From contig SUYQ01000003.1 of assembly GCA_015060325.1 (NCBI GenBank), forward strand, positions 20,528 to 84,527: DNA of 64,000 nucleotides. The letters are read 5' to 3'. Origin of the DNA: Bacteroidales bacterium (lineage in GTDB: Bacteria > Bacteroidota > Bacteroidia > Bacteroidales > UBA932). How positions within the stretch are numbered: the first letter of the stretch is position 1; each line of letters opens with the position of its first letter. Below are positions 7,080 to 61,243 of the stretch, one piece after another. The notes under the pieces were generated by a model. The model was not told the DNA's origin, ran no database searches, and was given only the letters and a program-made list of their open reading frames with translations. The translations under genes and the position numbers were made by a program.

Positions 7080-9422
7080 ATGAAAATAAACATATCCGAC
7101 GAACTGCATTCAATCATAAACTTTTCAAGAGAAGAAGCCCTTAGGACCGGAAGCTACGGGATATCTCCGGACCACCTCTATCTCGGCATGATACGACATC
7201 GTGAAAACACCGCAGTGGACACTCTGAGAGGACTCAGCATCGATATCGACGACATGAAGCAGTTCATAGACAGCAGGATCATGACGAACGAGCACCTTGC
7301 CTACTCGGAGATCGAACGCGTGACATTTTCCAGGGGCTCCCAGAACATCCTGAGCTTTACGATTCTCGAGGCGACAAAGGTACATTGTGCTACCGCCTCG
7401 TCCCAGCACCTTCTTCTGGCGCTGAGCCATCAGCCGGATTCCTACGGAAGCACATACCTCAGAGACCTTGGAACAGACTACAACAGCATCTACAGATATC
7501 TGGACAGCAACGACTTCCTCGATGATGGCGTGGACAGTTTCGGTAAGGATGCTGAAAGCCGGAAGAATGAAGAAGAACCCCAGATACGGTTCCACATCCA
7601 TGAAGAAGAGCCTCAGAAGGAGTCTGAAAACTTCTCACTTGAAGAATTCGGATATGACATAACCAAAGCCGCGAAAGAAGGAAAGCTTGATCCTCTTGTA
7701 GGAAGAGAGGACGAGATACAGAGGGTGATCCAGATCCTTGGACGCAGACGCAAGAACAACCCGATGCTTGTAGGTGACCCGGGAGTAGGAAAATCAGCGA
7801 TAGTCGAAGGCATCGCAATCAAGATCGTCAATGGTGACATCCCGTCATCCCTTGCCGGAAAAAGGCTTATATCGCTGGACCTGGGCTCAGTGGTTGCCGG
7901 CACAAAATACCGTGGAGATTTTGAGAAACGGCTGAAAGCCATAATAAATAAAGTGGCAGAGGATCCCGACATCATCCTTTTCATAGATGAGTTCCACACC
8001 ATAGTTGGCGCCGGTGGGGCATCAGGAAGTCTGGATGCTGCCAATATGCTGAAACCGGCCTTGGCAAGAGGCGACATACAGTGCATAGGTGCAACTACGA
8101 TGGATGAGTTCCGTAAGATCGTGGAAAAGGACAGGGCTCTGGACAGACGTTTCCAGAAGATCATTGTCGAGCACACAGACATCCAGCAGTCAATCTCGAT
8201 CCTGGAAAGCCTGAAGACAAATTACGAAAAGCACCACAATGTGATTTATACTGACGAGGCGCTGGAAGCATGCGTCAGGATGTCGGAAAGATATATAACT
8301 GACCTGTGTCTTCCTGACAAGGCAATCGACGCTATGGACGAGGCCGGTTCCATGGTAAGGCTGAAGAATCCTCATAAAACTGCTGAAGTGACTGCGGACG
8401 ACGTAGCAGAAATCATATCAAAGATGACTGGAATCCCTTCGGGAAAGGTAGCGGAGAGCGAAGGTGGAAGGCTCATCAGGATGAAAGAGAGGCTCAAGGA
8501 ACGCATTATCGGGCAGGACGAAGCGATCGACAACGTTGTACGTTCCATCCAGAGAAACAGAGCCGGGATCAAAGATCCGGGCAAACCTATAGGAACATTC
8601 ATTTTCTTCGGTCCGACTGGTGTGGGAAAGACTCAGCTAGCCAAGTCTCTTGCCGAATACCTGTTTGATTCTGAAGAGAACATGGTCAGGCTGGACATGA
8701 GCGAGTACATGGAGAAGTTCAACGTGACACGTCTTATCGGAGCGCCTCCGGGATATGTCGGCTTTGAAGACGGAGGGCAGCTTAGCGAAAGAGTCCGCCG
8801 CAAGCCATACTGCGTGGTACTGCTGGATGAAATAGAAAAAGCTCATCCGGACGTATACAATCTGCTGCTGCAGGTTATGGATGAAGGACGACTGACTGAC
8901 AGCAACGGAAGGACAGTCAGTTTCAGGAACACGATCCTGATCATGACATCCAACGTCGGCAGCCGTGAACTGGACGAATACGGCAGCGGCGTAGGCTTCA
9001 ATACAGGTGGCAAAAATATTGCAGGCAATAGAAAAGCCGTGCTGGAGAAAGCCGTCAAGAAGGTATTCCCGCCCGAATTCATAAACAGGGTTGACGAACA
9101 GGTGTTCTTCAATCCTCTTGACAAGGAAGATATCGGGAAGATCATTGACATTGAGCTCAAGGAACTCAAGAGAAGGGTGCGCGAAGCCGGCTTTGAACTC
9201 AGCGTGACAACAGGAGCCAAGAGGCTGGTGGCGGACGCCGGTTACGACCCAAGCTATGGCGCAAGACCGCTCAAGAGAGCCGTTCAGCGACTGATAGAGG
9301 ACCCCGTTTCCGAACTGATCATCACAGAGAGGATTCTATCCAAGAAAGGCGTAGATGGGCACAAGAAGATACGTATAAGCCTTTCAAAAGACAAGGAATA
9401 CACCTGCGTGGAATGGGCTTAG
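7080..9422 (+). CDS. clpC: ATP-dependent Clp protease ATP-binding subunit (ClpC/ClpA class)
   Basis: Clp N-domain repeats; two AAA+ modules (GDPGVGKS / LFIDEFH; GPTGVGKT / LLDEIEKAH); YGARPLKRAVQ. Confidence 0.9.
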   Translation: MKINISDELHSIINFSREEALRTGSYGISPDHLYLGMIRHRENTAVDTLRGLSIDIDDMKQFIDSRIMTNEHLAYSEIERVTFSRGSQNILSFTILEATKVHCATASSQHLLLALSHQPDSYGSTYLRDLGTDYNSIYRYLDSNDFLDDGVDSFGKDAESRKNEEEPQIRFHIHEEEPQKESENFSLEEFGYDITKAAKEGKLDPLVGREDEIQRVIQILGRRRKNNPMLVGDPGVGKSAIVEGIAIKIVNGDIPSSLAGKRLISLDLGSVVAGTKYRGDFEKRLKAIINKVAEDPDIILFIDEFHTIVGAGGASGSLDAANMLKPALARGDIQCIGATTMDEFRKIVEKDRALDRRFQKIIVEHTDIQQSISILESLKTNYEKHHNVIYTDEALEACVRMSERYITDLCLPDKAIDAMDEAGSMVRLKNPHKTAEVTADDVAEIISKMTGIPSGKVAESEGGRLIRMKERLKERIIGQDEAIDNVVRSIQRNRAGIKDPGKPIGTFIFFGPTGVGKTQLAKSLAEYLFDSEENMVRLDMSEYMEKFNVTRLIGAPPGYVGFEDGGQLSERVRRKPYCVVLLDEIEKAHPDVYNLLLQVMDEGRLTDSNGRTVSFRNTILIMTSNVGSRELDEYGSGVGFNTGGKNIAGNRKAVLEKAVKKVFPPEFINRVDEQVFFNPLDKEDIGKIIDIELKELKRRVREAGFELSVTTGAKRLVADAGYDPSYGARPLKRAVQRLIEDPVSELIITERILSKKGVDGHKKIRISLSKDKEYTCVEWA

Positions 9423-47514: not shown

Positions 47515-47561
47515 GTCTATATTATTATTTTCTTTTATTTCGGATTCTGTTTCCGGTTCCC

Positions 47562-47666
47562 CACTGTCATTTCGAGCGAGCGAAGCCCCACTGTCATTTC
47601 GAGCGAGCGAAGAGAGTCGAGACAATCGACGAAGTCGCTTGAGCGTCAGCGAAAGAATCTCCAGCC
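47562..47666. repeat. REP-like mosaic: two 27-bp CACTGTCATTTCGAGCGAG units plus an inverted AGATTCTTTCGCTGACGCTC element
   Basis: Units at 47562 and 47589; 47641-47660 is the reverse complement of the 23827 element head. Confidence 0.88.
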
Positions 47667-47681: not shown

Positions 47682-48704
47682 TTATTCGTACTCCGTAATC
47701 TTCAACCGGTATTTATTGCTACCCAGATTCTGAAAATACCGGGGAACGTCCTGCATCTCCTGTCCGATAATCCCGGTCATCCCCGACCTGACAGTTCCGG
47801 TCATCCCCGGTTTGACATCCCCCGTCATCCCCGGCTTGACCGGGGATCTCCTCCACTGCCCGTCAACACAGAACAGCACCGGATCCTTCACGCCCTCAAG
47901 TTTAAACCCAAGCTGCTCATATACAGCGCCTTCTGACCACTCCAAGTCAGCGTAGCTCATCACATCATCCGGATGCACATCATCTATAAAAGCCTTGAGC
48001 ATCTTGCCCATGCCGCCATTGATCCTCACGCCAGGGAGGGATGCATACCGTGTCCATTCATAAGACCGTATCGTCTTCTCCCCCTTCTGCCACTTTCGGG
48101 CATTGGAAAACGTAGCCACCGCCACCAGACTCCCCGGCTCTACCCAACTGTCATTTCGAGCAAGCGAGTCCACACTGCCATTTCGAACAATCGAGTCCCC
48201 ACGGTCATTTCGAGCGAGAGAGCCTACACTGTCATTTCGAGCGAGCGAAGCGAGTCGAGAAATCTCCAGCCACCTGCCAGTATACCGCTTCAAATACAGC
48301 CCATACCGATACCGGCACGCAGCATCACCATAGCTATGATTTTCACTCAGGAATGCCGCCGCAGTCTCCTTATCGATCTTCCTTACCTCGCAATTGCGGG
48401 CATACATCGATATGAAGATCTCGAGATGCGCCAAAAGCCTGGCTTTCATCATTTCCGGCTGACGCCTCCAGCGATCTTCAGTGATGATCACTGCTGCTGA
48501 TCCTTCTTGACTCAAAACAGCCAGCAAATTATTGATAGTTCTTGCATCCTCGCGAGCCTGCTCCTCATTTTCAGCCTGGACATCCCACGGCACCACACAC
48601 TTCCGTCCTACACTCAGCACTTCCACCCCGCAGCGGGCTTCCGCCACACAGTCAAACGCGTTAGCACAAAGAAAATCACGTATTTCGTCTGCCAAAAGAG
48701 TCAT
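47682..48704 (-). CDS. Hef/Mom-like GNAT-fold protein with a degenerate Vsr/DUF559-like N-terminus and two in-frame repeat insertions
   Basis: IITEDRW; [16 protein letters not shown]; LVAVATFS; YEWTRYAS; [13 protein letters not shown]; [16 protein letters not shown]. Start MTLLAD lies 5 nt after a TAATTTTG box (48710-48717). Confidence 0.65.
47776..47849 (+). repeat. Palindrome GTCATCCCCGGCTTGACCGGGGATCT with two further 24-bp half-copies, in frame within the CDS
   Basis: GTCATCCCCG at 47776, 47800 and 47824; encodes VKPGMTG repeats. Confidence 0.93.
48146..48265 (+). repeat. Palindrome CACTGTCATTTCGAGCGAGCGAAGCGAGTCGAGAAATCT with three further 27-bp half-copies, in frame within the CDS
   Basis: Units at 48146, 48173, 48200 and 48227; 120 nt = 40 codons (SLARNDS repeats). 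Confidence 0.93.
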
Positions 48705-48955: not shown

Positions 48956-49058
48956 ATAGTTAATGCGCTGACCGATAGCGCTTTATGTGTCCATCAGATT
49001 GTAGGCATTTCGTTCATCTGGACATTTAGTGGGAGAGATTGGGAAATCAAGTTCAATA

Positions 49059-49185
49059 GTGAACATTTCGGGTGGCAGGGAAGGCAACAGCCAGGCGCGA
49101 GGAGAGCCCTTCAAGGGTAGGGCTCCCCGCAGCGCTTGAGCTGTAGTCGTCGGAGAACGTATATTCCGACGACGGTGCCGTGCAT
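49059..49185 (+). ncRNA. Repeated structured element (predicted four-way junction), copy 1
   Basis: Near-identical to 50948-51074 and to the reverse complement of 59892-59993; four stems predicted by eye. Whether it acts as RNA or DNA is unknown. Confidence 0.45.
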
Positions 49186-49336
49186 ATCGGTATGTAGGCC
49201 ACGATAGACCAATGATACCGGATGGGCAATATTACACATGACAGCGCAATACAACGCGTTAACTGTCAACCACTTACGTCTTTATTATGACATCAAAGCG
49301 CACGGTATCAACAATATAACATCCTGATACTCAGAC

Positions 49337-49750
49337 AGTTATATTGCGCAACCGATGAGACATTTAATATGAAAGAAGCTGACAGCAAGGGAGGTTGAAT
49401 CCTTGTTGTCAGCTTCATGTTATCAGTTCATGTTGCCTGATCATGTTACTTGATCATGTTGCCAGCTCCTGGTGCGAGCTTCATGTTTTTGCAGAACGGT
49501 ATGTTCTAGAAAGACTGGAATGTCGACCATTTCGTGTTGGCCTCGGCTGCTGTCTCAACGCCATCCGGAAGATTCACGAAGAAGTCAAATCCGGTCCAGG
49601 ACTCGATCTGGTCTACTGAGACTGCGTAGTTTGTGTAGGAATCCGAGTAGGTCTTATGCTCGAACCAGAAACCTATAGCACTTACACCCGGCAGTTCAAG
49701 CCAGGACTTGCCAGACACAGCCGGCAGCTGTGCAGCGACAGTCGTGAATG
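49337..49750 (-). repeat. Diverged direct duplicate of 51770-52067 plus 52626-52700 (nuclease 3' end, terminator and downstream flank)
   Basis: Shared CAGTTATATTGCGCAACCGATGAGACATT and AAGAAGCTGACAGCAAGG hairpin; homologous coding segments. Confidence 0.92.
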
Positions 49751-49766
49751 ACACCACCGGGCCCAT
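49506..49766 (-). pseudogene. Orphan endonuclease fragment with an in-frame internal deletion of the catalytic core
   Basis: SWLELPG joined directly to VSAIGFWFEHK; lacks the 186 codons (equivalent to 52068-52625) that include RGH; C-terminal 58 aa are 51/58 identical to the intact copy. Confidence 0.85.
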
Positions 49767-49803
49767 ATCAGTCTTTATAAAACTAACACAGCATGCTGAT
49801 TAC

Positions 49804-50736
49804 TTAAATTCTTGAGATCAATGCCTCAACCTGCTCAACTGTAAGCATAGTCAGCTTCGCCACTTGCTGCACATCCATTCCAGCTGCAAGCATATTAACA
49901 GCCACTTCTGCACGACCCTCAGCACGACCCTCAGCACGACCTTCTGCACGACCTTCTGCAAGTCCCTTCTCACGACCCTCTGCAAGTCCCTTCTCACGAC
50001 CTTCTTCCAGTCCGGTCTTAATCGCATAGGCAAATTGATTTCTCAAATCTCTTTCTGTTGTCATTTTGCTCAATATTAAAGTTCGTAAATCATCACTGCT
50101 CATTATCAGTTCACCTGTATCGAATATCTTATCAAAGACATCATGAGTCAAAGCTTTGGGACGTCCCTGCAACAGATGCATGTTCTTCAAGCAGAAATAC
50201 ATTCCTTCAAGTATATTGCCATCAAGCTCATCTTCGGTCTTCTTAAACTTTGGCAATTCAAGAAAAATGTATGTCAGTCTATTGGATAAAAGTCTATGGT
50301 GTTCTTGTTCCAACAACCTGTATACGGTTTTGACATTCGTCAGGCCCTCATTCTGTTTGAGGGTAAAATCCAAAATACTGATTACATAAATCGGACAAAA
50401 GTCATAACTGTCCTGTGCAGAATCAACTTGTTTCAGAACCTGATGCATAGAATAGTAGAGCATCCTCTCTGCATACCATTCCTGCTTTCGATTCTGAAGT
50501 TCAACAATAATTCTAGAACCATCATCTGTCTTACAGAACAAATCATAGATTGATGTTTTACGGTCACGAATATTCGGATGCATTTCCTTATCCATAAAAT
50601 CAACATCCACAATCTTCCTGTCATCAATCACCTGATTGAGAAACTCAATCATGACAGTCTTCGTAGACTCCTGTCCAAAAACCAGTTTGAAGGCATCATC
50701 GACCATCAAATCCGGATACTTTACATCTTCATGCAT
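49804..50736 (-). CDS. Rpn-family recombination-promoting nuclease / putative transposase (PDDEXK_2)
   Basis: DDAFKLVFG, IYDLFC.TDDG.RIIVELQN, ERMLYY, FLELPKF; C-terminal EGREKG/EGRAEG repeats; AVNML helix. Confidence 0.92.
   Translation of the reverse strand: MHEDVKYPDLMVDDAFKLVFGQESTKTVMIEFLNQVIDDRKIVDVDFMDKEMHPNIRDRKTSIYDLFCKTDDGSRIIVELQNRKQEWYAERMLYYSMHQVLKQVDSAQDSYDFCPIYVISILDFTLKQNEGLTNVKTVYRLLEQEHHRLLSNRLTYIFLELPKFKKTEDELDGNILEGMYFCLKNMHLLQGRPKALTHDVFDKIFDTGELIMSSDDLRTLILSKMTTERDLRNQFAYAIKTGLEEGREKGLAEGREKGLAEGRAEGRAEGRAEGRAEVAVNMLAAGMDVQQVAKLTMLTVEQVEALISRI
49906..50007 (-). repeat. 12/24-bp coding repeats in the Rpn C-terminus
   Basis: EGREKGLA x2, EGRA x4. Confidence 0.9.
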
Positions 50737-50947
50737 AAATTTTAATTTTAGATTAAACACTCCCAATACGGGCTAATAAAAATTTATGCATCCTCCCCTC
50801 AACGATTCCCCACAAATGTGCAAAAAAATCCGCACCAAGTCAACACACTGATACAGATTTTTCTTTTTATTTAACAAACTTTTTCTAAATCTTTAAATTT
50901 TTTCTTTTTTTTAATCTCCTCTGTGGTCTTCATTCCGGGTCACGTTG

Positions 50948-51074
50948 GTGAACATTTCGGGTGGCAGGGAGGGCAGCAGCAAAGTGCGAGGAGAGCCCTT
51001 CAAGGGTAGGGCTCCCCGCAGCGCTTGAGCTGTAGTCGTCGGAGACCGTATATTCCGACGACGGTGCCGTGCAT
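50948..51074 (+). ncRNA. Repeated structured element, copy 2
   Basis: See copy 1; differences are concentrated in the 5' flank and loops. Confidence 0.45.
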
Positions 51075-51148
51075 GTGTTCAGGGACTCTAGGATACGCAA
51101 ATACAACTATTGAACAAGACGACAGATAAGACAGCAGGCAAGATAATG

Positions 51149-51764
51149 GACATGTAAGTAGCTGATGATCAGCAAGATGAGTATTATGAGGGTGGGGCAA
51201 AATGACCCACCGTGTTGGTAGTTAGATAGTTGATAATCAGGAGGTTGCATGACCAAGAGAAGGCATTGAGTTCAACGATAATTTCGGTTGATTGGCTTTC
51301 CCGTCCATGAAAACGGGCAATTTCGTGGACGGGATACATCAAATTGATGGCCCCATCCATGAAAAGGACTGTTTTTGTGGATGGCGAAGTTCTGTTTAAA
51401 GTTCACGTCTATAGAAAGGGTCTATTTTGTGGAGAGAAAGACAGGACATTAGACATGTAGGTAGCTGATAGTCAGCAAGATGAGTACCGAGAGGATGGGG
51501 CAAAATGACCCACCGCATTGGTAGTTAGATAGTTGATAATCAGGAGGTTGCATGACCAAGAAAGGCATTGAGTTCAACGATAATTTCGGTTGATTGAACT
51601 GCGCCCCATCCATGAAAAGGGCTGTTTTTGTGGATGGCGCAGTTCTGTTTAAAGGTCACGCCTATAGAAAGGGTCTATTTTGTAGAGAGAAAGACAGGAT
51701 ATTAGACATGTAGGTAGCTGATAGTCAGCAAGATGAGTACCGAGAGGGTGGGGCAAAATGACCC
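51149..51764 (+). repeat. Non-coding tandem repeat: units of 303 and 253 bp plus a 60-bp partial, each with several hairpins
   Basis: GACATGTA(A/G)GTAGCTGAT starts at 51149, 51452 and 51705. Confidence 0.95.
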
Positions 51765-51806
51765 TCGGCCAGTTATATTGCGCAACCGATGAGACATTCA
51801 ATATGA

Positions 51807-51865
51807 AAGAAGCTGACAGCAAGGGAGGTTAACCTTGTAGGTTAAATCCTTGTTGTCAGCTTCTT
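51807..51865. terminator. Long hairpin downstream of the nuclease ORF (second copy near 49374-49416)
   Basis: AAGAAGCTGACAGCAAGG ... CCTTGTTGTCAGCTTCTT. Confidence 0.75.
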
Positions 51866-51887
51866 GTTTTTTGCAGAACGTTATGTT

Positions 51888-53006
51888 CTAAAAAGACTGG
51901 AATGTCGACCATTCAGCGTTGCTTTCAGCTTCTGCCTCAACAGTATCCGGAAGATTCACGAAGAAGTCAAATCCGGTCCAGGACTCGATCTTGTCTACAG
52001 AGACAGCATAGTTCGTGTAGGAGTCCGAGTAGGTCTTATGCTCGAACCAGAAACCTATAGCACTTGCGCCTGTTACCGTGCTGCCGGACTTATTGACCTT
52101 CAGGACGACCTTGTAGAAGTAGTTCGGAACCGGAACGCTCTTGGTGTCATCCTGGGCAGTCGTGTATGTTATCGACTTCGACTCCCCGACCTTATTGAAG
52201 GCCACACCGGTCACGATGTAGATCTCTTCGCTCTTCGCAATCGACTGGAGAGCGGCTTCAAGGTTCTGCCATACTCCTCCGTTGAAGTTGTTCTGGATCT
52301 GCGGAACAGAGTTGGTCACATAGAAGGTCTGCAGCTGCATCGTCTCGTTGCCGTTACGGGATGCATTCGGAATCATATGACCGCGCGAGTAGCTGTCATT
52401 GTAGCTGCTCGAACGCAGATCCACCTGATAGGACTGATCGATGCTCGGGCTGTAACTCCACTTGCTCGGGCGGCTCAGACTGCCCATATGGGACGAGTTC
52501 AGATGATATGCCGTCCACAACGAAGTGTAGGTCGACTTATCATAACAATGGGTGTAGTTGCGGTTGGCGTCAGTGGTCGAAGATCCATAATAGGTATTAA
52601 CGACGTAATCAGTTCCGCTCACCGCTCCCGGCAGCTCAAGCCAGGACTTTCCTGACACGGCAGGCACCTGTGCAGCGACAGTCTTGAATGACGTCACAGA
52701 GCCCGTGAAGGTCTGACCGCCAACCACAACATAAGACTGGACATAATATGTCGTGCCGGCAGACAGTCCCTCAACATCTGCACTGAATGAAGATGCCGTA
52801 CCGCTGTAATTGTCACATGTAATCGTTTTTGTCAAAGACGAGGAAGAAGTTCCATATCGGAATCCCACCTCCGTGGGCTCAGAAGACGCTTCCGTATACG
52901 AAGCAGACAGGCTGGCGCCTGTCTGCTCTATGTTCGTCACGGTAGTCGTCGTTACTGTTGCACCCACTGCGGGCTCATCACCCCCGACGCCTCCGCCGGA
53001 TGATGG
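51888..53006 (-). CDS. Fn3-like plus DNA/RNA non-specific endonuclease (His-Me finger) module; no signal peptide; in frame behind the upstream UGA
   Basis: SRGHMIPNA, FYVTNSVPQ..FNGGVWQNLE, YIVTG, VPNYFYKV. The frame is open from 53006 (PSSGGGVGGDEP linker); first possible own start is GTG at 52967. Confidence 0.88.
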   Translation of the reverse strand, partial: PSSGGGVGGDEPAVGATVTTTTVTNIEQTGASLSASYTEASSEPTEVGFRYGTSSSSLTKTITCDNYSGTASSFSADVEGLSAGTTYYVQSYVVVGGQTFTGSVTSFKTVAAQVPAVSGKSWLELPGAVSGTDYVVNTYYGSSTTDANRNYTHCYDKSTYTSLWTAYHLNSSHMGSLSRPSKWSYSPSIDQSYQVDLRSSSYNDSYSRGHMIPNASRNGNETMQLQTFYVTNSVPQIQNNFNGGVWQNLEAALQSIAKSEEIYIVTGVAFNKVGESKSITYTTAQDDTKSVPVPNYFYKVVLKVNKSGSTVTGASAIGFWFEHKTYSDSYTNYAVSVDKIESWTGFDFFVNLPDTVEAEAESNAEWSTFQSF

Positions 53007-55721
53007 TCACTGAAGTTTATAGATTGCAATATCTAACTGACCACTTGAATAGCAAGAGAAAATACGGCTTGAGCTATTATATCTCATCCAATTTCTTGTA
53101 TTGGTTCCATTTGCTTTAACAGTGGCAACACCTGCTGACGTAATTGATATAGTCCAAGAACTATTTGCAGACAATGTAGTTTCTGTTCTCAGATAGTTTT
53201 TAGAAGATGACGCAGCGTAAAGGTAACCAGAACCAGTATTAAAAGCATATGTTCCTGTAGTCTTACCAGTTTCAAGAGTCAATATCTGTACGTCACTGCC
53301 GAAAGTAATAGTATTACCACTCTTAGATACAGATGCTTGACCTCTGTTATTGCTATTCTGTGTAGTACTCAATGCATTATTTGAAGCACTTGCAACAATT
53401 ACCACCTGATCTCCAACAGCAAGGTTATTCACATCTGTAACTAAAGTCCAAGTTTTATCTGTCTCAACTACGTCAGATACGGTGATTTGATAAGTCGTTG
53501 TCTTGTCCTCATAGCTGACTGTTACGGTATATGTGTCAGCAACAGACATATTATAACCGTCAAAAGTAGCTGATGCAGTCACATCTTCTTTCGAGCCATC
53601 TGAATATGTTGCTGTAACAGTTGGCTTTACAAACTCCTCACCTACAGTGTATGTTGTCTTTTCACCTGATACAGCTATTGATTCCAAAGTTGCAGGTGCT
53701 TCTTCTCCCTCAACGGCTTTAATCAGATACAGATCCTGTGCCTGGGTACCAGCGTACATCGCAAAATAGTCATTACCTTGAGTACCATTAAGGCTTAAAT
53801 AACGATCTCCAGACACAAAGTTAAACGAGCCATCATCTTGTTTTGTAACAGTAAACTGTAAACCTGTCTCAGACATTACTGCTGAATTACCAGACGTCCA
53901 AGATACATACTCTTCTGATGCTACAGACTGAATTGTATATACTGATCCAGACTTAGAAACATTCCACAGTTTAGACGCAGCGACCTCTACATTATCTTCC
54001 GGCATATTTGCTCCTGCTGATACTGCTGTAAGTCTAACTGTTGAGGTACTTGTTTCTTCATTAGTCAAATAATAGTATAGAGACTCTGAGTTTCTATATG
54101 CCACAATCGCATACTGTCCAGAGTAGTCAGAATCATCAACCACCGTCGCCGAAACAGTTATATTGTAGGATGTAGTCACAGTCACTTCACCCTCAGTATA
54201 GGAAACTGTAACTTCCTTGGTTCCTTCCGACGCCAAATCATTGCCACTAAATGTAGCACCTGTTACTGTTTCAGTGCTTGCATCATCATAAGTAGCCTTA
54301 ACTGTCGGTTCAACAAACTCATCACCTACGGTATATTCGATCTGCGGATTCTCCACAGCAATCGACACCAAAGTTTTAGGTTCTGGCTCTGGAGTCTCGC
54401 CACCCTCGTTTTCGGTATAGTAAACAACAACAGAAGTAAATCCGCATGTACCTCCAATAGTGGCAGTCATCGGCTGAGTTCCGTTCGTTGGAGTAACAGT
54501 TACAGTAGTAGTATTCACTTCAGCTGAAGCATTTGTCCAAGAACTACCCGAAAGAGCAGTTGCATAGTTTGCTGATGTTGCAGTAAAGACAACAGATGTA
54601 ATCTTGTATCCAGTCTTAGAAGCAATGGTCAAGACACTATTTTTGTAGAACCTTGTACTAGTCCTGCTGTCGCTATTACCACCATAATAATTGTTTGTTG
54701 GAGTTGATGCACCACCCTTTTCACAATACATCTCAGCGAAATCACTTGTCCAAGCGATCTTAGTATCAGACACTTCCGATGTCTCATTTATTGACAAATT
54801 CCATGTTACATTTTCTGGTTCTGGTTCTACTACATCAGCCGAAGAAATTGTATATGGAGTAGTGTTATACTTTCCTGCCTCGAATGATATTCCGTTCAAT
54901 GTAACAGTCTTTGTGTAAGTCTTGCCCTCTGCGTCGGTAACCTTGAATGTCACATCTCCCGAGTAATTTGAGAGAGGAGCCATTACAAAGTAAACTGGAA
55001 GAGATTCGCCAGCTGCAACTGTACCATTTGTTACATTTACAGTGATAGCTGATGACTCATTTTGCTTTATAGATATAGATGGTGTTTCGAAAGACTCCAC
55101 ATTAAACACACCCGCGATATCAGCACCTTCAGCTGTCATCTCAAACTTTGCAACCTCAATTTCAGCACCTGTATTATTCTTTACATCTACCTGCATCATT
55201 GTATAGATGTGCGACATCGTTACCTGAGCAGCCTCGGTCATAGGAGTAGTGGCAGTAAAGGTACCTACGAGTGCATCATTTTCCTTGATATGAGCAGTAG
55301 GATTTGCGCAATCCTGTGACTGAGTTGCCTCAAGTTTATGCGTTGTTGATGCTCCACGATGATATGACTTCTGGTTAGCTCTAGCATACATAGCATTAAA
55401 TGTATACTCGCCATCAGATATTGTGGATCCTGTCGTAAACTTTCCATCATTGTATGCATACTCTGCTATTGTAGCAGCCTCTGTATCATTTGCATACGGT
55501 GCCCCCCAAGTACCGTCTGTCGTAACTAGATAGAGTACATCTCCTTCCTCCCACTCAACTGAAAGGCCATCTAGAGTTGTCTTTGTCTGTGCAATCTCTG
55601 CTACAAGTTCAAATGAAGAACCTTCTGCTTTGGCATTTGGGTCTTCGATTTCATTTTTCTGGCATCCTGCAAAATTAACCATAGCAGCAGCCATACCTAA
55701 CAAAAGAACTATTTTTTTCAT
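53007..55721 (-). CDS. Fimbrillin-like (type V pilin, Mfa-like) lipoprotein with two Big_3-type Ig domains and beta-rich C-terminal modules
   Basis: Lipobox FAGC; QTKTTL..VEWEEGDV pilin N-terminus; two repeats of SIAV..YTVG.EF..PTV.ATY.D..VTVSY; AT-rich sequence. Confidence 0.78.
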   Translation of the reverse strand: MKKIVLLLGMAAAMVNFAGCQKNEIEDPNAKAEGSSFELVAEIAQTKTTLDGLSVEWEEGDVLYLVTTDGTWGAPYANDTEAATIAEYAYNDGKFTTGSTISDGEYTFNAMYARANQKSYHRGASTTHKLEATQSQDCANPTAHIKENDALVGTFTATTPMTEAAQVTMSHIYTMMQVDVKNNTGAEIEVAKFEMTAEGADIAGVFNVESFETPSISIKQNESSAITVNVTNGTVAAGESLPVYFVMAPLSNYSGDVTFKVTDAEGKTYTKTVTLNGISFEAGKYNTTPYTISSADVVEPEPENVTWNLSINETSEVSDTKIAWTSDFAEMYCEKGGASTPTNNYYGGNSDSRTSTRFYKNSVLTIASKTGYKITSVVFTATSANYATALSGSSWTNASAEVNTTTVTVTPTNGTQPMTATIGGTCGFTSVVVYYTENEGGETPEPEPKTLVSIAVENPQIEYTVGDEFVEPTVKATYDDASTETVTGATFSGNDLASEGTKEVTVSYTEGEVTVTTSYNITVSATVVDDSDYSGQYAIVAYRNSESLYYYLTNEETSTSTVRLTAVSAGANMPEDNVEVAASKLWNVSKSGSVYTIQSVASEEYVSWTSGNSAVMSETGLQFTVTKQDDGSFNFVSGDRYLSLNGTQGNDYFAMYAGTQAQDLYLIKAVEGEEAPATLESIAVSGEKTTYTVGEEFVKPTVTATYSDGSKEDVTASATFDGYNMSVADTYTVTVSYEDKTTTYQITVSDVVETDKTWTLVTDVNNLAVGDQVVIVASASNNALSTTQNSNNRGQASVSKSGNTITFGSDVQILTLETGKTTGTYAFNTGSGYLYAASSSKNYLRTETTLSANSSWTISITSAGVATVKANGTNTRNWMRYNSSSRIFSCYSSGQLDIAIYKLQ

Positions 55722-55753
55722 CTTTACTTTCCTTTTAGTTGTTTGACTTACTA

Positions 55754-55909
55754 CTATTCGAACCAGTTATTGTTACCGGTTTCCCAATCTTGTGCATCGA
55801 AATCTCCCGATGCACACAGCACTCCTTCGCTCAAAACTTCGAGCGTTTTTACGGAAGGGGTTTCGTATGCTGAAACCTCTCCCATGAATTGTTTCCTTTC
55901 TAGGGTCAT
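55754..55909 (-). CDS. 51-aa small protein, MTLERKQFMGEVSAYETPSVKTLEVLSEGVLCASGDFDAQDWETGNNNWFE
   Basis: Manual translation; ends TAG-TAG-TAA; lies between the TAAATTTG box (55991-55998) and the fimbrillin gene. Confidence 0.75.
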   Translation of the reverse strand: MTLERKQFMGEVSAYETPSVKTLEVLSEGVLCASGDFDAQDWETGNNNWFE

Positions 55910-55990
55910 AATTAATTGATATTTAGTTTGTTAATATTTTCTACACACATTCCACGCGCGCATCGCATGCACAACGCGCACATTAAGCGG

Positions 55991-55998
55991 CAAATTTA
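55991..55998 (-). promoter_or_regulatory. -7 box of the sORF-fimbrillin-nuclease unit
   Basis: TAAATTTGC on minus. Confidence 0.65.
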
Positions 55999-56084
55999 GA
56001 CTATAAATTCCTGATAATCAAGAAAAATCTCCGATAGTTGAAAAACTTTCGGAGATGTCACATAATATGGCACATAGACCGGTA

Positions 56085-57071
56085 TTATTCTGCAAGATAT
56101 TTTTTAAACGAAATCCAGTCGGACGCAGTCTCAGAAACCGTCTCTATCGGGTCAGGCAGACCGGCAAAAAGATCGAGTCCAGTGAGCTTTTCAATATCGT
56201 CGACGGTGACCGTGAATTCAGAATACGAATGTCCCTTGAGGTCTTCGTGTGGGAGAAGAAATCCTATGGTCCTGGCCTCAACCACCCCATCACTTCCCCG
56301 CTCAACCTTAAGCAGAGCCTTCCAATAGCTTTCGGGCACAGGAAGAGTCTTGGAGTCGTTCTTATTGACTATGGTCCTGACGGCACTGAGCTCATCACCC
56401 TGAGAGAAAATGGCTCCCGTCACGACATAGAGCGTATCTTCCGGAGGCACTGCTGAGCGCACCGCTTCCTCCAGTTTAGCCCATATCCCTCCGTTGAATC
56501 CATGCTGGATCTGAGGAGTCATGTTTGTCGAAAAATAGGTCTGAGCCTGCATTTCAGGGACTGCACTGCGGTCTGCATTCGGGATCTGGTGGCCTCGGGC
56601 ATAGAAGTTCTTCGGGTAGTTTGCAGTCGGGACAGATACGCCATAGCCGCTGCGTACATTGGTCTGGATGACCCTGGAAAGCTGCGGATCATACCCCCAG
56701 GTCTCCTCACGTCCCTTGGATGTGTGCGCGCTGCAGAGAGGATATGCCACCCAATGGGCCGCATACAGGTCCTGGTCGTAACAGAGGGTGTAGTTGCGCT
56801 GGAGCGTTCCATTCATATGCGCTCTATGGGTCACGATATGACATCCCTCCATATCCCCCTTTCCCTGAGGCAGTTCCAGCCAGTCAGGAGTTCCGGGGCC
56901 AGCAGATGACGCCATAGCCTTGCGAGCCTTTCCGGCTCCGTCGTCAGACGGACCGTTCCCGGCATCCTGGGCAGAAGCCGATTGTGACTTGCTGCCAAAT
57001 ACGACAAAAAGCAGCAACACCAGGCTCAGGCCTAGTATCACTGCTATAGTTATTCTGGTACTTTTCTTCAT
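56085..57071 (-). CDS. Membrane-anchored DNA/RNA non-specific endonuclease
   Basis: N-terminal TM helix; NYTLCYD..AAHWVAY, YARGHQIPNAD, YFSTNMTPQ..FNGGIWAKLE. Confidence 0.93.
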   Translation of the reverse strand: MKKSTRITIAVILGLSLVLLLFVVFGSKSQSASAQDAGNGPSDDGAGKARKAMASSAGPGTPDWLELPQGKGDMEGCHIVTHRAHMNGTLQRNYTLCYDQDLYAAHWVAYPLCSAHTSKGREETWGYDPQLSRVIQTNVRSGYGVSVPTANYPKNFYARGHQIPNADRSAVPEMQAQTYFSTNMTPQIQHGFNGGIWAKLEEAVRSAVPPEDTLYVVTGAIFSQGDELSAVRTIVNKNDSKTLPVPESYWKALLKVERGSDGVVEARTIGFLLPHEDLKGHSYSEFTVTVDDIEKLTGLDLFAGLPDPIETVSETASDWISFKKYLAE

Positions 57072-57094
57072 ATCAATTTACGAGGCAGGGGTAA

Positions 57095-57195
57095 AGATCC
57101 TTCGCTTCGCTCAGGATGACAGTGAGGGGCTCAGGATGACAGTGAGGGGCTCAGGATGGCAGAGAGGGGGCTCAGGATGACAGTGAGGGGCTAAG
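57095..57195 (+). repeat. REP-like AGATCCTTCGCTTCGCTCAGGATGACA plus 20-bp tandem half-copies
   Basis: GCTCAGGATG(A/G)CAG(T/A)GAGGG at 57109, 57129, 57149 and 57170. Confidence 0.92.
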
Positions 57196-58975
57196 GCTGG
57201 ACAAACGCGAGGATCTCACCCTTGGCAACCATGTCGCCCTGCTTGGCGCATACAGCGATTATGCGTCCGTCAACCGCAGGGACGACCTCCTCCATTCCGT
57301 AGTAGGTCTGGACGTGGCCCATGGCGGTGCCGGCAACAACCTTGGTGCCGGCAACAGGCGCCGTCGAGGCGTCGTCCACGTCGATCTGCCAGAGGATCTG
57401 GCCCTTTACAGGAGCCTGGACAGGAACTGCAGACGGGTATTTCCGTACGATCTCATCCACATCGAACTTCGGCATCTCGACCACAGGGCGCTCGATGACA
57501 ATCGGCGCTCCGGCCTTGGCCTTCGCCGCCTCAAGGTCAGCGCGGAAGCGTTCCTTCGCAACGCCGCTCCTGTAGTCACGATACTGCCTCTCGTGCATAG
57601 CGAACTCGAAGAGTTCTTCTTCGTCCTGTCCGACATCCCATCCCTCTTCCTTCATCATTGCGCGGAACCTGTCGAGCTCGTTCGGGAATGCATCCTGCGG
57701 GTTGCCCGTGTAGAACTCGAGACCCTTCTGCTTTGCGAGCTCCACGATCTCCGGTGCGAGCGGGCCCGGAAGGGTTCCCATCTTGCCGAGGATCATGTTC
57801 CAGGTATCCTTGTCGATGGTTGTCCAGCGAGGCTGGCCCTTTAGGATGTTCATGAGGTTCATCAGTGCGGTGTTCTTGACATACTGGCTGAACGGGGTCA
57901 CGAGCGGCGGATAGCCCAAGCGTGGCCATACATATTCAACTTCCTGGAAGAGCATGACCATCAGCTGGTCGAGGCTGAGCTCGGCCTTGCCCTGGGCGCG
58001 GAGCGAAGCGTTGATCGCGCCGTGGAAGCCCTTGAGGTCGGCCATCATCGAGCCCATCATGCCGCCCGGGAGGCCGCAGCCGACCAGGAGCGAGCTCATG
58101 TGCGAGTTGTTAGGGTCGATCCAGTAGCCGAGGAAGTCGTCCATGAACTTCTGGGTCAGCGCCCTGACTTCCATGTAGGCGTTCATGTTCAGGTCTTTGA
58201 CCGTGAAACCGTCGGCCTTGAGCATCTCGCGGATGGTGATCACGTCAGGATGCACCTTGCCCCATGAAAGAGGCTCTACTGCCACGTCGAGGTAGTCGGC
58301 ACCGGCGCGTGCGACCTCGAGCATCGAGGCCGGAGAGAAGCCGGGGCCACAGTGGCCGTGGTACTGTACTGCTATATGCGGATATTTCTTCTTTATCTGC
58401 CTGGTGAGTTCGCCCAGGAAGGTAGGGCGGCCGATGCCTGCCATGTCCTTGAGGCAGATCTCGTCGCAGCCGTATTCAACTACCTTGTCGACCACGCCCA
58501 TGTAGTATTCGACCGTGTGGACCGGAGAGTTGGTGATCGAGAGGGCTACCTGTGAGATCATGCCGCCTTTCTTGGCGTATTCGACGCTGAGGCGGAGATT
58601 GCGGTGGTCATTCAGACCGCAGAACGATCGCGAGATGTCTGTTCCCTGTGCCTTCTTCACCTTGTACATGAGTTCGCGGACATCGGCCGGAACCGGATTC
58701 ATGCGGAGTGCGTTCAGACCGCGTTCGAGCATGTGCGTCTGGATGCCTGCCTTGTGGAAAGGGGCAGTCCATTCACGGACAGCCCTGTTAGGGTTCTCAC
58801 CGAAGAGGAGGTTGACCTGCTCGAATGCACCTCCGTTGGTCTCAACCCTGTCGAAACATCCCATATCGATGATTGCCGGAGCAACTTCCTTCAACTGACT
58901 GACAGTAGGAACATATCGTCCTGATGACTGCCACATGTCCCTGTACACAAGGGAGAATCTGATTTCTTTTGCCAT
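57191..58975 (-). CDS. Pyruvate carboxylase subunit B / oxaloacetate decarboxylase alpha-like carboxyltransferase with biotinyl-like C-terminus
   Basis: RDMWQS, ETNGGA, CLKDMAG, HGHCG, PGGM, PPLVTPFSQ; start reassigned to MAKEIRF. Confidence 0.88.
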   Translation of the reverse strand: MAKEIRFSLVYRDMWQSSGRYVPTVSQLKEVAPAIIDMGCFDRVETNGGAFEQVNLLFGENPNRAVREWTAPFHKAGIQTHMLERGLNALRMNPVPADVRELMYKVKKAQGTDISRSFCGLNDHRNLRLSVEYAKKGGMISQVALSITNSPVHTVEYYMGVVDKVVEYGCDEICLKDMAGIGRPTFLGELTRQIKKKYPHIAVQYHGHCGPGFSPASMLEVARAGADYLDVAVEPLSWGKVHPDVITIREMLKADGFTVKDLNMNAYMEVRALTQKFMDDFLGYWIDPNNSHMSSLLVGCGLPGGMMGSMMADLKGFHGAINASLRAQGKAELSLDQLMVMLFQEVEYVWPRLGYPPLVTPFSQYVKNTALMNLMNILKGQPRWTTIDKDTWNMILGKMGTLPGPLAPEIVELAKQKGLEFYTGNPQDAFPNELDRFRAMMKEEGWDVGQDEEELFEFAMHERQYRDYRSGVAKERFRADLEAAKAKAGAPIVIERPVVEMPKFDVDEIVRKYPSAVPVQAPVKGQILWQIDVDDASTAPVAGTKVVAGTAMGHVQTYYGMEEVVPAVDGRIIAVCAKQGDMVAKGEILAFVQP

Positions 58976-59130
58976 AATAGTTATAATGAGTGCTAACAAA
59001 GTTATGCAAAAGAATCCTGACAACGCAAGGGATATCGTAGAAAATAAGCGTAATATCAGATTATGGGGTCAAATACTTTACTGTGGTCAAAAATTTCACC
59101 ACACAGTATTGCAGGTTTGAAAATTTTACG

Positions 59131-59138
59131 TATCTTTG
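59131..59138 (+). promoter_or_regulatory. -7 box of the tRNA-His gene
   Basis: TATCTTTG about 19 nt upstream of the tRNA. Confidence 0.65.
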
Positions 59139-59156
59139 CAGTCCTTAAACCAACAT

Positions 59157-59231
59157 GGTGCCCATAGTTCAGTTGGTTAGAGCGTCAGATTGTGGTTCTG
59201 AATGTCGTGGGTTCGAATCCCACTGGGCACC
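59157..59231 (+). tRNA. tRNA-His(GUG), G-1 encoded, CCA not encoded
   Basis: Acceptor GTGCCCA/TGGGCAC; anticodon arm TCAGA-TTGTGGT-TCTGA; T arm GTGGG-TTCGAAT-CCCAC; discriminator C. Confidence 0.97.
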
Positions 59232-59236
59232 CTGGA

Positions 59237-59278
59237 AAACTCCTTATGATCGTCCGTTCATAAGGAGTTTCTTTTTTT
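59237..59278 (+). terminator. Intrinsic terminator after tRNA-His
   Basis: AAACTCCTTATGA-N8-TCATAAGGAGTTT followed by a T-run. Confidence 0.9.
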
Positions 59279-59744
59279 CGCGGTTGTTTTGCATTCTGTC
59301 AGACCGTCCGACATTAAAAATGCGAAAAAGTTGCCGGACGGTGCCCAAAATAGGTGTTTTATGTCAGAAATAGGGACCGTCCGACATGAATTTGGGCATT
59401 TTGATGCCGGACGCTTTTCCGGCCGACATGTGAGACCTGTCGGAATACGGTTTTCCGTAGCATCGCTTGGATGAAGCGATATGGATATGCAACCACCTGG
59501 TAGAGTGCGGCTTACCTATAAACAGATTTGCAGATATGCTGGTCGGAATGCAGCTCTACCCCCACGATACCTTTGGGCTCTACTGAGAATCCACGGATGT
59601 TTTGTCCTCCCGTCCATGGTTTTCCACTTTTCATGGACGGCTGCCACATATATCTACACGACGCCTCACTGCCACACCTCCAGAATGCTCCATTGCCTTT
59701 ATTTCGCCTTGTTCAATCGACTTTGTCGATTTCAACCGAGCCCA

Positions 59745-59881
59745 CCCTGTAATTTCTTTCGCCTTACTTAAGCGGAAAGCCGATTGCGACCGAGCCACCT
59801 TCTTGTGTGCCCCTGTCATTTCTTTCGCTGGCGCTCAAGCGGCAAGCCGATTGCGACCGAGCGGAGCGAGTGGAGAAATCT
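59745..59881 (+). repeat. Extended GTCAT...GAGAAATCT element with a 66-bp upstream partial duplicate
   Basis: CCCTGT(A/C)ATTTCTTTCGC...AAGCCGATTGCGACCGAGC at 59745 and 59811. Confidence 0.8.
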
Positions 59882-59891
59882 GGTATGTTGA

Positions 59892-59993
59892 GCGCGGCAC
59901 CGTCGTCGGAATATACGGTTTCCGACGACTACAGCGCAGGCGCTGCGGGGAGCTCGACCCTGAAGGGCTCTCCTCGTGCCTGGCTGTTGCCTT
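59892..59993 (-). ncRNA. Repeated structured element, copy 3 (inverted, more diverged)
   Basis: Reverse complement matches 49081-49181, with stem-preserving changes. Confidence 0.45.
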
Positions 59994-60203
59994 TTAGCCC
60001 ATATATATGTTTGCGCACGTGCTCGAAGGGCGGTTTGGGTTAATGGAAACGGAGTGCTTGGTCATGAAATGCCTCAAACTCGGCCAAGCGGTGTGGATTT
60101 TATGCTGAAAATGCTTTTTTGTAGTACCGCTTGTGCCTAAATCGCTCGAAACTCGTCCAAGCGGTTTACTTTGCTGACTCGGAGTTCTGCGGGGTATCCG
60201 TAA

Positions 60204-60426
60204 AGATCCTTCGCTGCGCTCAGGATGACAGTGGTGACAAAGCTCAGGATGACAGTGGTGACAAGACTCAGGATGACAGTGGTGACAAAGCTCAGGATGA
60301 CAGTGGTGACAAAGCTCAGGATGACAGTGGTGACAAAGCTCAGAATGACAGTGGTGACAAAACTCAGGACGACAGTGGTGACAAAACGCAGGAGGACAGT
60401 GGTGACAAAACGCAGGATGACAGTGG
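60204..60426 (+). repeat. REP-like AGATCCTTCGCTGCGCTCAGGATGACA plus nine 24-bp tandem units
   Basis: (G/A)CTCAGGATGACAGTGGTGACAAA every 24 bp from 60218 to 60410, degrading distally; a related degenerate element at 60441-60498. Confidence 0.95.
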
Positions 60427-60589
60427 GCGGTCTGTGTTCAAGATCCTCACGTCGCGTCACTCCTCAGGAGAACAGAGAATCGGTCAGGAGGACAGTGATA
60501 AAACAGCTGTCCCGTCGGAGAGGAAAGCGTTTGTTGTTCAGGTTTCTGCTTTCCGACCGACGGGGACCGGTATTTTCAAATGTATTATA

Positions 60590-61243
60590 CTACTTCTTCT
60601 CGCCGTAGGCAAGGTCGCCGGCATCGCCGAGACCTGGGACGATGTATGAATGGCTGGTAAGTTCCTCGTCGATGGCGGCCACCCAGAGGGTCACACCCTC
60701 TTCAGGGAGATGTTTCTGCAGATATTCCACTGCATATGCACTTGATATAGGGCATACAAGGTGGGTATGGAAAGGCTGGCCTTCCTCGCAGAGTCTCTTG
60801 TAGGCAATCTCGAGAGAGGCACCTGTAGCAAGCATGGTATCAGCTAGAATCAATGTCTTTCCTGTAAGGTCAGGAGTGCTGGCATACTCGATCTGGATAT
60901 GGAAGTCTTCGCCCTTGTCATACTTTCTGTACGCTGCCACGAATGCATTCTGAGCATCATCAAAATAGTTCAGGATGCCCTGATGGAGAGGAAGACCAGC
61001 CCTGAGGATGGTAGCTACGACGATCTTCTCGTCGTATGTAGGGATCTGAGCGATGCCGAGAGGTGTGACATATGGCTTCACAGAGTTGTCAAGCGTCTTG
61101 CTGATCTCATAGGCGAAGATCTCGCCGAGCCTTTCAAGGTTTCTACGGAATCGCATGCTGTCCTTCTGGACATCCTTGTCACGCATCTGCGCAACGAACT
61201 TGTTCAGGATGGAATTGTTTTCCCCGAGATTGATGACTTTCAT
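60590..61243 (-). CDS. upp: Uracil phosphoribosyltransferase
   Basis: FRRNLERLG, ILRAGL, ADTMLATGAS, YIVPGLGDAGD. Confidence 0.96.
   Translation of the reverse strand: MKVINLGENNSILNKFVAQMRDKDVQKDSMRFRRNLERLGEIFAYEISKTLDNSVKPYVTPLGIAQIPTYDEKIVVATILRAGLPLHQGILNYFDDAQNAFVAAYRKYDKGEDFHIQIEYASTPDLTGKTLILADTMLATGASLEIAYKRLCEEGQPFHTHLVCPISSAYAVEYLQKHLPEEGVTLWVAAIDEELTSHSYIVPGLGDAGDLAYGEKK

Follow-up and report, generated by a model that had tools for sequence, protein, structure and literature searches.

A small-protein gene with a constant head and lipoprotein-matched tails lies ahead of a pilin-fold lipoprotein gene in uncultured gut and rumen Bacteroidales

Here we describe a small-protein gene in a 64,000-nucleotide (nt) stretch of contig SUYQ01000003.1 (GenBank assembly GCA_015060325.1, positions 20,528 to 84,527 of the forward strand), hereafter the window, from a Bacteroidales bacterium of the UBA932 lineage. 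The gene encodes 51 amino acids (aa; translation of 55909..55757, MTLERKQFMGEVSAYETPSVKTLEVLSEGVLCASGDFDAQDWETGNNNWFE) directly ahead of a gene for a 904-aa lipoprotein that is predicted to carry a pilin-like fold, and comparison with related loci suggests that its product could be an accessory peptide matched to that lipoprotein. A first-pass annotation made from the letters alone had marked it as a leader-like peptide at the head of a pilin operon. The open reading frame (ORF) itself, its motif Y-E-T-P-S-V-x7-E-G-V-L-C-A-S (55867..55808), the acidic Trp/Asn-rich tail that comes next, the triple stop and the gap of 32 nt between the first peptide stop and the lipoprotein ATG (55721) were all confirmed, on the minus strand. 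The features at the head of the locus are:

56019..56056, minus strand: terminator-like hairpin and T-run closing the upstream nuclease gene
55991..55998, minus strand: Bacteroidetes-type -7 promoter box TAAATTTG, 89 nt upstream of the ATG
55954..55983, minus strand: GC-rich stem-loop at the predicted 5' end of the transcript, a few nt after the -7 box
55910..55998, minus strand: 5' untranslated region (UTR) and promoter box, the remainder of the interval marked in the first-pass annotation
55757..55909, minus strand: 51-aa small-protein gene, sense codons only (ATG at 55909, last sense codon at 55757)
55868..55909, minus strand: basic, Asn/Lys-rich N-terminus, residues 1-14, which follows lineage and is common to peptides with differing tails
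55808..55867, minus strand: family-wide head motif, residues 15-34, YETPSVKTLEVLSEGVLCAS, from a diverse alignment
55757..55807, minus strand: cassette-specific acidic/aromatic tail, residues 35-51, GDFDAQDWETGNNNWFE, of type 'F..DW..G...WF'
55748..55756, minus strand: stop codons TAG TAG TAA, directly after the last sense codon
53010..55721, minus strand: gene for the 904-aa surface-type lipoprotein, with signal peptide, lipobox Cys20 and an acidic stretch after the Cys
54840..55619, minus strand: type-V-pilin-like (Mfa_like_1) two-domain module of the lipoprotein, residues ~35-294, recognised by Pfam, AlphaFold2 (AF2) and Foldseek

Judged by its pattern of substitution, the peptide gene is real and translated, with a sequence under selection at the amino-acid level. 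Searches returned 48 close homologues and, at E<=1e-3, 316 cluster representatives among 1.84 billion proteins and 833 proteins of about 40-60 aa in a collection of 5.8 billion; almost all matches are 36-97 aa long, the longer ones being over-extended at their starts. An alignment of 105 diverse members shows no variation at Y15, P18, E28 and C32 and retains G29 and S34 in at least 90%, within a universal head consensus (residues 15-34) of Y-E-[TSA]-P-x-[VI]-x-x-[LV]-[ED]-[VI]-x-S-E-G-V-L-C-x-S; family alignments thus bear out the leader-like layout of conserved head and variable acidic tail. Among 37 different head-coding DNA sequences, synonymous change is near saturation (proportion of synonymous differences, pS, 0.75; nonsynonymous, pN, 0.245), and the invariant head residues (Y, P, E, G, V, L, C and S) are written with all their synonymous codons, including both AGY and TCN for Ser. 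Conserved residues with freely varying codons point to selection on the protein and not on the DNA. Within one tail type (ESLDF) pN/pS is 0.24 for the tail and 0.38 for the first 140 codons of the accompanying lipoprotein, which marks the tail as functional sequence rather than spacer, and the length, start and stop of the ORF are kept across hundreds of members.

The family is carried by uncultured Bacteroidales of gut and rumen; a genome scan turned up no named genomes beyond two metagenome-assembled genomes of Candidatus Cryptobacteroides, and the DNA sequencing runs that contain the window are faeces and sheep-gut metagenomes. Among the matches listed, those with a source name are 'hypothetical protein' throughout and one has an NCBI protein accession, which makes it plausible that, as had been remarked, the gene was missed by the ORF track. 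Profile searches of the peptide against Pfam and NCBIfam gave no family at E<=1, a search of PDB sequences gave a single chance match to a nanobody (E 0.8), Rfam gave only tRNA across 49000..61000, with no family over the peptide or its UTR, and literature searches on the motif, on small ORFs with fimbrillin and on readthrough in Bacteroidetes gave nothing relevant. Every known family that we considered fails at least one defining feature, and the cassette of peptide and pilin-fold lipoprotein with two constant junctions appears to be undescribed in the libraries and papers searched. The peptide has a net charge of about -7, and AF2 gave it no stable fold by itself (predicted local distance difference test, pLDDT, 57), as would be expected of a peptide that folds on a partner.

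The terminator-like hairpin at 56019..56056 ends the preceding gene, and the peptide gene therefore heads its own transcription unit. The Bacteroidetes -7 box has the consensus TAnnTTTG, and most homologous loci have a similar -7-like box 49-110 nt upstream of the peptide gene. The stem-loop near the box is probably an mRNA-stabilising 5' hairpin. It has no match in Rfam; equivalents of unrelated sequence were seen at loci L001, L005, L009-L014, L016, L027, L029, L032 and L038, suggesting that structure rather than sequence is conserved. Metatranscriptome contigs from two runs cover 55717..55888, the junction between peptide and lipoprotein genes, at low depth.

Peptide and lipoprotein genes are paired almost without exception. 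In 48 of the 49 loci with room for it, the lipoprotein gene begins at most 32 nt past the peptide stop or overlaps the peptide gene by up to 17 nt, the remaining locus (L047) being an anomalous, chimeric-looking contig, and several stop/start pairs nearly abut (TAAATG, TAAGATG). Starting in reverse from the lipoprotein side, we found a family peptide just upstream of all three further lipoprotein homologues. The triple stop is confined to the window, TAA being used elsewhere (31 of 32 distinct intergenic regions examined, the window counted). This layout, a spacing of 4-32 nt or an overlap of up to 17 nt, fits co-transcription and translational coupling, and the association of such short ORFs with fimbrillin-like lipoprotein genes, which the first-pass annotation had mentioned, proved to hold across abundant homologues.

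Tails have 12-25 residues, with an acidic character and many Trp, Phe, Tyr, Gly and Asn, and the last residue is mostly hydrophobic or aromatic. On present alignments they fall into discrete types, each tied to one type of fimbrillin-like lipoprotein:

..F...DW..G...WFE, the type of the window
..F.I.DWE.D.ESLDF
YGDANKAG....E.N.W[DEN]F
SSP.STIDDATEDDWGTL
FD.DN.TE.F....EEL
YKWTEGGAGTY...INDNGEY
YD....GYD..NDLGEI
shorter forms, Q.EEW...W

Over 37 distinct pairs, distance between tails was correlated with distance between lipoprotein N-domains (Mantel r 0.48, p<=0.0005); the corresponding value for residues 1-14 was 0.22, and the correlation for the tail persisted when the N-terminus was controlled for (partial r 0.46). 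Where N-termini were similar and tails different, the lipoproteins were distant in 22 of 22 pairs, and where the tail type was the same and N-termini differed, the lipoproteins were related. The '..DWF' tail stays with the lipoprotein type of the window despite heads that have drifted, to DTAVCQAS in one member and to a Cys-less form in another. Taken with the joint exchange of tail and lipoprotein between strains, this covariation favours a specific partner or signal over a generic role.

That exchange is delimited by two borders:

55813..55815, minus strand: 5' cassette breakpoint at codon 32/33, from identity to L054, L055 and L056
53007..53009, minus strand: in-frame TGA between the lipoprotein and nuclease frames, the 3' cassette border

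Loci L054, L055 and L056 share 97-100% DNA identity with the window from the upstream nuclease gene through promoter, UTR and head as far as 55813-55815, and at most 65% past that point. Their tails differ from that of the window (YGDANKAG..WEF and SSPDSTIEDATEDNWGIL), and in L055, where the contig is long enough, the matching other lipoprotein type is also present, so that one chromosomal site has three alleles with WFE, WEF and WGIL tails. The same sharp break at the border of head and tail separates L017 from L020. At the far end, the window and L009 become similar again at 53033 despite their differing lipoprotein types, and RNA contigs have loose ends at 53009. These breaks make tail plus lipoprotein an exchangeable cassette, flanked on the 5' side by constant sequence (promoter, UTR, N-terminus and head) and on the 3' side by a second constant block. 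As for an invertible promoter, no convincing inverted repeats were found flanking the promoter. A separate observation concerns L018 and L019 (peptides at 8001..8153 and 2863..3015), where the peptide of L017 lies about 550 nt from a divergent tyrosine-recombinase/integrase gene and the lipoprotein ends at a TAA, with a linker remnant only and no nuclease; this copy of the cassette may be on a mobile or rearranged segment.

The lipoprotein of the window has the lipobox MKKIVLLLGMAAAMVNFAG-C20, and after its acidic stretch come, in order, an anchor-strand region, TK47T, the pilin-like domain, a beta-rich region, two Big_3 domains, a beta-trefoil-like part and a C-terminal domain. An acidic stretch after the Cys resembles the Bacteroidetes surface-export signal. 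A Pfam scan of the full-length protein found Big_3 and a weak ricin-type match only, with no fimbrillin match; its N-terminal 299 aa scanned alone matched Mfa_like_1 (PF13149) at E 4.9e-12, with 46.8 bits against a cut-off of 27. The AF2 model of the N-terminal part has a pLDDT of 86, and Foldseek placed it with BF1858 (3t2l, E 8e-11), BACOVA_04980, BF1861 and the Porphyromonas gingivalis tip/anchor pilins Mfa3 and Mfa2 (entries 3t2l, 3ufi, 3sy6, 5nf4 and 5nfi; probability 1.0, template-modelling (TM) scores of ~0.37-0.61). The Pfam threshold for Mfa_like_1 is passed by 3 of 20 other partners, and most of the other partners are 26-58% identical to the window protein across the pilin-like domain. 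All distinct partners aligned have the same N-terminal design of lipobox Cys, acidic stretch, first beta-strand, T-K/R-T and W..GD; the T-K/R-T after the first strand, found in nearly all partners, is a putative basic protease site.

At the N-terminus of type V pilins an anchor strand comes first, with a basic protease site behind it; the pilins polymerise via inserted donor strands of ~20 residues, the extreme C-terminus being essential, and insertion of a donor strand releases the acceptor pilin from its lipid-anchored strand (PMC13655056). Tip and adaptor pilins have no donor strand of their own (PMC13655056). Beyond the pilin module the partners diverge, with Big_3, beta-trefoil-like, BACON, Fn3, LamG or carbohydrate-binding module (CBM)-like parts. 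In the window protein ~600 further residues follow the module, with no C-terminal donor strand directly behind it, and no stalk or anchor pilin genes were found among the Pfam-labelled genes of the downstream flanks examined. Beside distant loci, some further lipoprotein ORFs look fimbrillin-like by eye. The partners look like tip or accessory pilins, or like a non-polymerising surface scaffold displaying enzymes or binding modules. Of the 'pilin operon' of the first-pass annotation, the pilin thus survives, through Mfa_like_1 and the fold matches; a pilus operon is not recognisable, given that no stalk or anchor genes were seen in those flanks, the long C-terminal extension and the two flanking nucleases. 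Two further ideas on how the peptide might relate to the lipoprotein were rejected: a disulfide between it and Cys32, since Cys is unconserved in the lipoproteins and one partner has none, and descent of the peptide from a lipoprotein precursor by degeneration, since acidic residues precede Cys32 and a lipobox would not have Leu at -1.

At its 3' end the lipoprotein gene runs into a second conserved junction:

51888..53006, minus strand: linker, Fn3-like and Endonuclease_NS domain, in the frame of the lipoprotein and with no signal peptide
52972..53000, minus strand: nearly invariant 29-nt element TCCGGCGGAGGCGTCGGGGGTGATGAGCC, encoding SGGGVGGDEP, with variable flanks
56085..57071, minus strand: for comparison, the upstream Endonuclease_NS gene, with an N-terminal membrane anchor/signal, a separate transcription unit

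Lipoprotein and downstream Endonuclease_NS ORFs share one frame with a single stop between them, TGA in 14 and TAG in 2, at 16 distinct loci (the window, L001, L005, L009-L014, L016, L017, L021, L025, L026, L029 and L030). Codons after the stop read x-x-S-G-G-G-V-G-G-D-E-P, with no start codon there in most loci; in the window the residues spanning the stop (X) are ...YKLQ-X-PSSGGGVGGDEP. A hairpin in the element (CCGGCG-GAGG-CGTCGG, 52984..52999) begins 7 nt past the stop. Its pairing holds in 97.9% of cells; two loci show one compensatory change from CG to UA and five loci show GU>GC, and the hairpin is present in both the minimum free energy and centroid folds, the overall folding energy being unremarkable. 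All the downstream nucleases are without a signal peptide, the upstream ones have a membrane anchor or signal, and in L018, where the nuclease is missing, the stop is TAA. The simplest reading of these sequences is programmed readthrough that would yield a minor lipoprotein-nuclease fusion, exported via the lipoprotein signal; the 29-nt element may double as a 3' homology arm for cassette exchange. An alternative genetic code was rejected as the cause of the in-frame stop, since the stop is TGA at some loci and TAG at others, and the remaining long ORFs of the window are intact under table 11. In a distant member (L039, 2817..4454) the lipoprotein ends in TAG, past which the next 74 codons stay in frame and resemble a beta-sandwich binding module (..DANWNVNRGGSW..GTYDVYL..), and C-terminal modules set off by a stop may be more general in these bacteria.

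We tentatively propose that the family consists of accessory peptides with a constant head and an allele-specific tail, each recognising its own pilin-fold lipoprotein. The tail would be the specificity element that binds the cognate lipoprotein, most plausibly at the pilin-fold N-domain or anchor-strand region, since this is the only part common to all partners, and the constant head would dock to a shared factor encoded elsewhere, perhaps an exporter, an assembly factor or an enzyme for processing. If type V pili are taken as a model, the strand-exchange groove of a pilin module without its own donor strand could be filled or capped by a free peptide acting like a strand or as a ligand, and this could control the anchoring of the lipoprotein and its enzyme cargo, their release or their linkage to other subunits. 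In those pili a foreign donor strand joins pilins and frees the acceptor, and tip pilins are without one, so a free peptide at this site could control the scaffold.

Several points weigh against this proposal. The peptide carries neither a signal peptide nor any export leader that we could recognise, the pilin domain does not fold until exported by Sec, and the place where peptide and lipoprotein would meet is left unexplained; nor was a shared factor that would bind the head identified. Known donor strands are less acidic than the tail, and more hydrophobic. Covariation of tail and lipoprotein could be mechanical, with crossovers in the conserved head DNA producing linkage and not interaction. 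One divergent member does without the otherwise invariant Cys, and the RNA support is thin, as the metatranscriptome signal could include DNA carry-over.

The alternative that survives best, although we consider it unlikely, is a cis-acting regulatory leader peptide, in which translation of the small ORF, maybe with the conserved motif stalling the nascent chain, would control transcription of the lipoprotein gene, mRNA stability or re-initiation, a form of control that would matter in these Shine-Dalgarno-independent bacteria. Placed on the ribosome, the peptide would no longer pose the topology problem of its missing signal peptide, and much of the layout agrees: the ORF is always the first cistron, overlaps the lipoprotein ATG by up to 17 nt or precedes it by up to 32 nt with near-abutting stops and starts, was not found without the lipoprotein, barring the anomalous contig L047, and has its own promoter and structured 5' UTR. 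Few residues are invariant, as in arrest peptides, and the peptide has no fold alone. However, the conserved block is 17-36 residues short of the stop, which would leave the variable residues near the peptidyl-transferase centre, and tails that are type-specific, matched to the lipoprotein and under purifying selection would be unneeded by a generic stalling device. We found no small-molecule logic and no alternative RNA structure joining the ORF to the downstream start.

A more elaborate form of the accessory-peptide proposal would make peptide and lipoprotein a strain-variable matched pair. In it the tail would act as a strand or ligand supplied in trans that decides anchoring, release or assembly and serves as a pherotype-like code of self and non-self, the lipoprotein would be extended into a surface nuclease by readthrough driven by the 29-nt element, and cassettes would be exchanged between the head and the readthrough element. 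As a whole, we regard this combination as speculative and decidedly unlikely.

We further doubt that the product is a precursor resembling ribosomally synthesised and post-translationally modified peptides (RiPPs), with a head recognised by unlinked enzymes through a RiPP recognition element (RRE)-type contact with YxxPxV and a tail or E-G-V-L-C-x-S segment that is modified, cleaved and exported, binding to the lipoprotein being unneeded. Lasso and PqqA leaders carry a Y-x-x-P-x-hydrophobic-type motif, which Y-x-x-P-x-[VIL] of this family resembles, and a conserved leader with a hypervariable C-terminus in many paralogues, invariant Cys, Ser and Glu in the head and disorder of the peptide alone would suit such a precursor. 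The likeness to lasso leaders and their RRE contact raised in the first-pass annotation therefore holds for YxxPx[VL] (YETPSV is present), but it fails at the Thr expected at -2 of a lasso leader, positions -2/-1 being A/G and S and never T, and in the absence of B, C and RRE genes. The two commonest tail types begin with Gly and have Asp at position 7, yet this lasso core pattern (G1...D7 in the WFE and ESLDF tails) is inconsistent in the other types, which start with Y or F, and is expected by chance in such acidic tails; types that begin with Tyr, Phe or Ser offer no consistent ring acceptor, and one member has no Cys to modify. Genes for radical-SAM, ATP-grasp, YcaO, LanB/C and lasso B/C enzymes, peptidases or ATP-binding cassette (ABC) exporters were unseen in the window (by eye, from ORF N-termini) and among Pfam-labelled neighbours in homologous contexts, in agreement with the earlier statement that no modifying enzyme is nearby. 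A RiPP-like role would also leave the strict coupling to a pilin-fold lipoprotein unexplained.

It is highly improbable that the peptide is an acidic inhibitor or immunity peptide shielding the cytoplasm from the neighbouring endonucleases, especially the downstream one without a signal peptide: the peptide is indeed highly acidic and cytoplasmic, and Endonuclease_NS genes flank the pair in the window and most close homologues, but the pair stands without a nuclease at L018/L019, as it does in every distant subfamily with room (e.g. L031, L039, L042-L045), on which ground nuclease inhibition was rejected as the main explanation, the tail type tracks the lipoprotein and not the nuclease architecture, and the nuclease would be accounted for more simply by readthrough from the exported lipoprotein. 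We give as little credence to the idea that the ORF matters mainly as DNA, its head-coding block being a 5' homology arm and the 29-nt element a 3' arm for cassette exchange with the peptide incidental, for which the sharp breaks at codon 32/33 and at the lipoprotein stop, the invariance of the 3' element at the nucleotide level and the Rpn-like PD-(D/E)XK genes beside the locus in the window and in L011 could be cited, whereas the head is conserved as protein at a pS of 0.75 with all synonymous codons in use, hundreds of members keep the length, start and stop of the ORF, and the tail is under purifying selection. A role as a DNA arm and a role for the peptide are not mutually exclusive.

Several other features of the window were noted downstream and upstream of the cassette, one of them a gene:

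49804..50766, minus strand: 320-aa gene that by eye resembles the PD-(D/E)XK (PDDEXK_2, Rpn/YhgA-like) gene of L011

Around this gene the 3' part of the nuclease gene and the DNA downstream of it are duplicated (49059..49764 against 50948..52704, 86-95% identity), leaving an 86-aa, internally deleted nuclease remnant at 49506..49766. In L011 the PDDEXK_2 gene is directly upstream of the peptide gene, which suggests a possible link between PDDEXK_2-like genes and cassette rearrangements. Near the C-terminus of the window gene, a 12-nt periodic repeat (49881..50012, minus strand) encodes (E/A)GR(A/E). Just downstream of the nuclease gene, 51136..51814 holds two or three direct copies of a non-coding unit of 120-170 nt (60-95% identity, spacing 253-303 nt). 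Arrays of a 20-27-nt repeat (GCTCAGGATGACAGTGAGGG and relatives) occupy intergenic or doubtful-ORF DNA at 57109..57200, 60218..60426, 47559..47612 and 48147..48248; word depth in the array at 57095..57158 reaches ~940 in one metatranscriptome run, and the repeat is apparently a transcribed, multi-copy family.

Type V pili and fimbrillin-like lipoproteins are major surface structures of gut Bacteroidales, and to our knowledge no small accessory peptide has been described for either, none having appeared in the literature searched. If our proposal is correct, a widespread peptide swapped together with its lipoprotein would bring a new element into how these structures are made, regulated or recognised, and would help to approach surface variation among the strains of gut and rumen communities. 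The nuclease junction, if confirmed, would rank among the few conserved examples of stop-codon readthrough on bacterial chromosomes and would explain how a nuclease with no signal peptide reaches the cell surface. As automatic annotation largely skips the peptide gene, this biology has been largely invisible in databases.

Compared with known systems, the partner lipoprotein is closest to type V accessory and tip pilins (Mfa3-5, FimC-E and 'cell adhesion' lipoproteins of the BF1858/BF1861 type), with which it shares a lipobox, an anchor-strand region with Lys/Arg in the next loop, and a two-domain, all-beta (in the model) Mfa_like_1 module of ~260 residues with no donor strand after it. Unlike type V pilins, it has ~600 extra C-terminal residues and a nuclease frame behind an in-frame stop. 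In fim and mfa operons a small-protein gene in front is undescribed, whereas here it is always present, and type V pilus operons have stalk and anchor genes, of which none were seen in the downstream flanks examined here. With lasso and PqqA leaders the peptide shares Y/W-x-x-P-x-hydrophobic followed by a beta-strand-like segment, and a conserved leader with a variable C-terminus; those systems differ in their Thr at -2, their B/C/RRE/radical-SAM genes and core rules that most tail types here do not satisfy. The nuclease junction resembles programmed readthrough of the kind seen in Q-beta A1 and murine leukaemia virus (MuLV) gag-pol, in its single in-frame UGA/UAG, a potentially stimulatory downstream hairpin 7 nt after the stop and a downstream domain without its own start codon and signal peptide; in contrast to these viral examples, it is chromosomal, bacterial and a candidate only, and its element could be a recombination junction.

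The arrangement of constant and variable parts has its nearest parallels elsewhere. As in pherotype loci (ComC/ComD, AgrD/AgrC), a precursor with a conserved N-terminal part and an allele-specific C-terminus co-varies with an adjacent gene, and alleles swap at one chromosomal site with breaks at the border of constant and variable sequence. Pherotype loci also have a double-glycine leader, an AgrB-like or ABC/peptidase gene and a histidine kinase, none of which occurs in any context here, where the neighbour is instead a pilin-fold lipoprotein, the host belongs to the Bacteroidales, and export and processing are putative. CdiA-CT/CdiI and Rhs-CT/RhsI likewise combine a constant region, a short junction motif, a variable C-terminus and a cognate gene downstream, with recombination at the junction; their variable part is a toxin domain and their cognate gene encodes a small immunity protein, in contrast to the acidic tail of 12-25 residues and the exported neighbour of 440-1050 aa seen here. 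We regard both parallels as analogy and not as membership.

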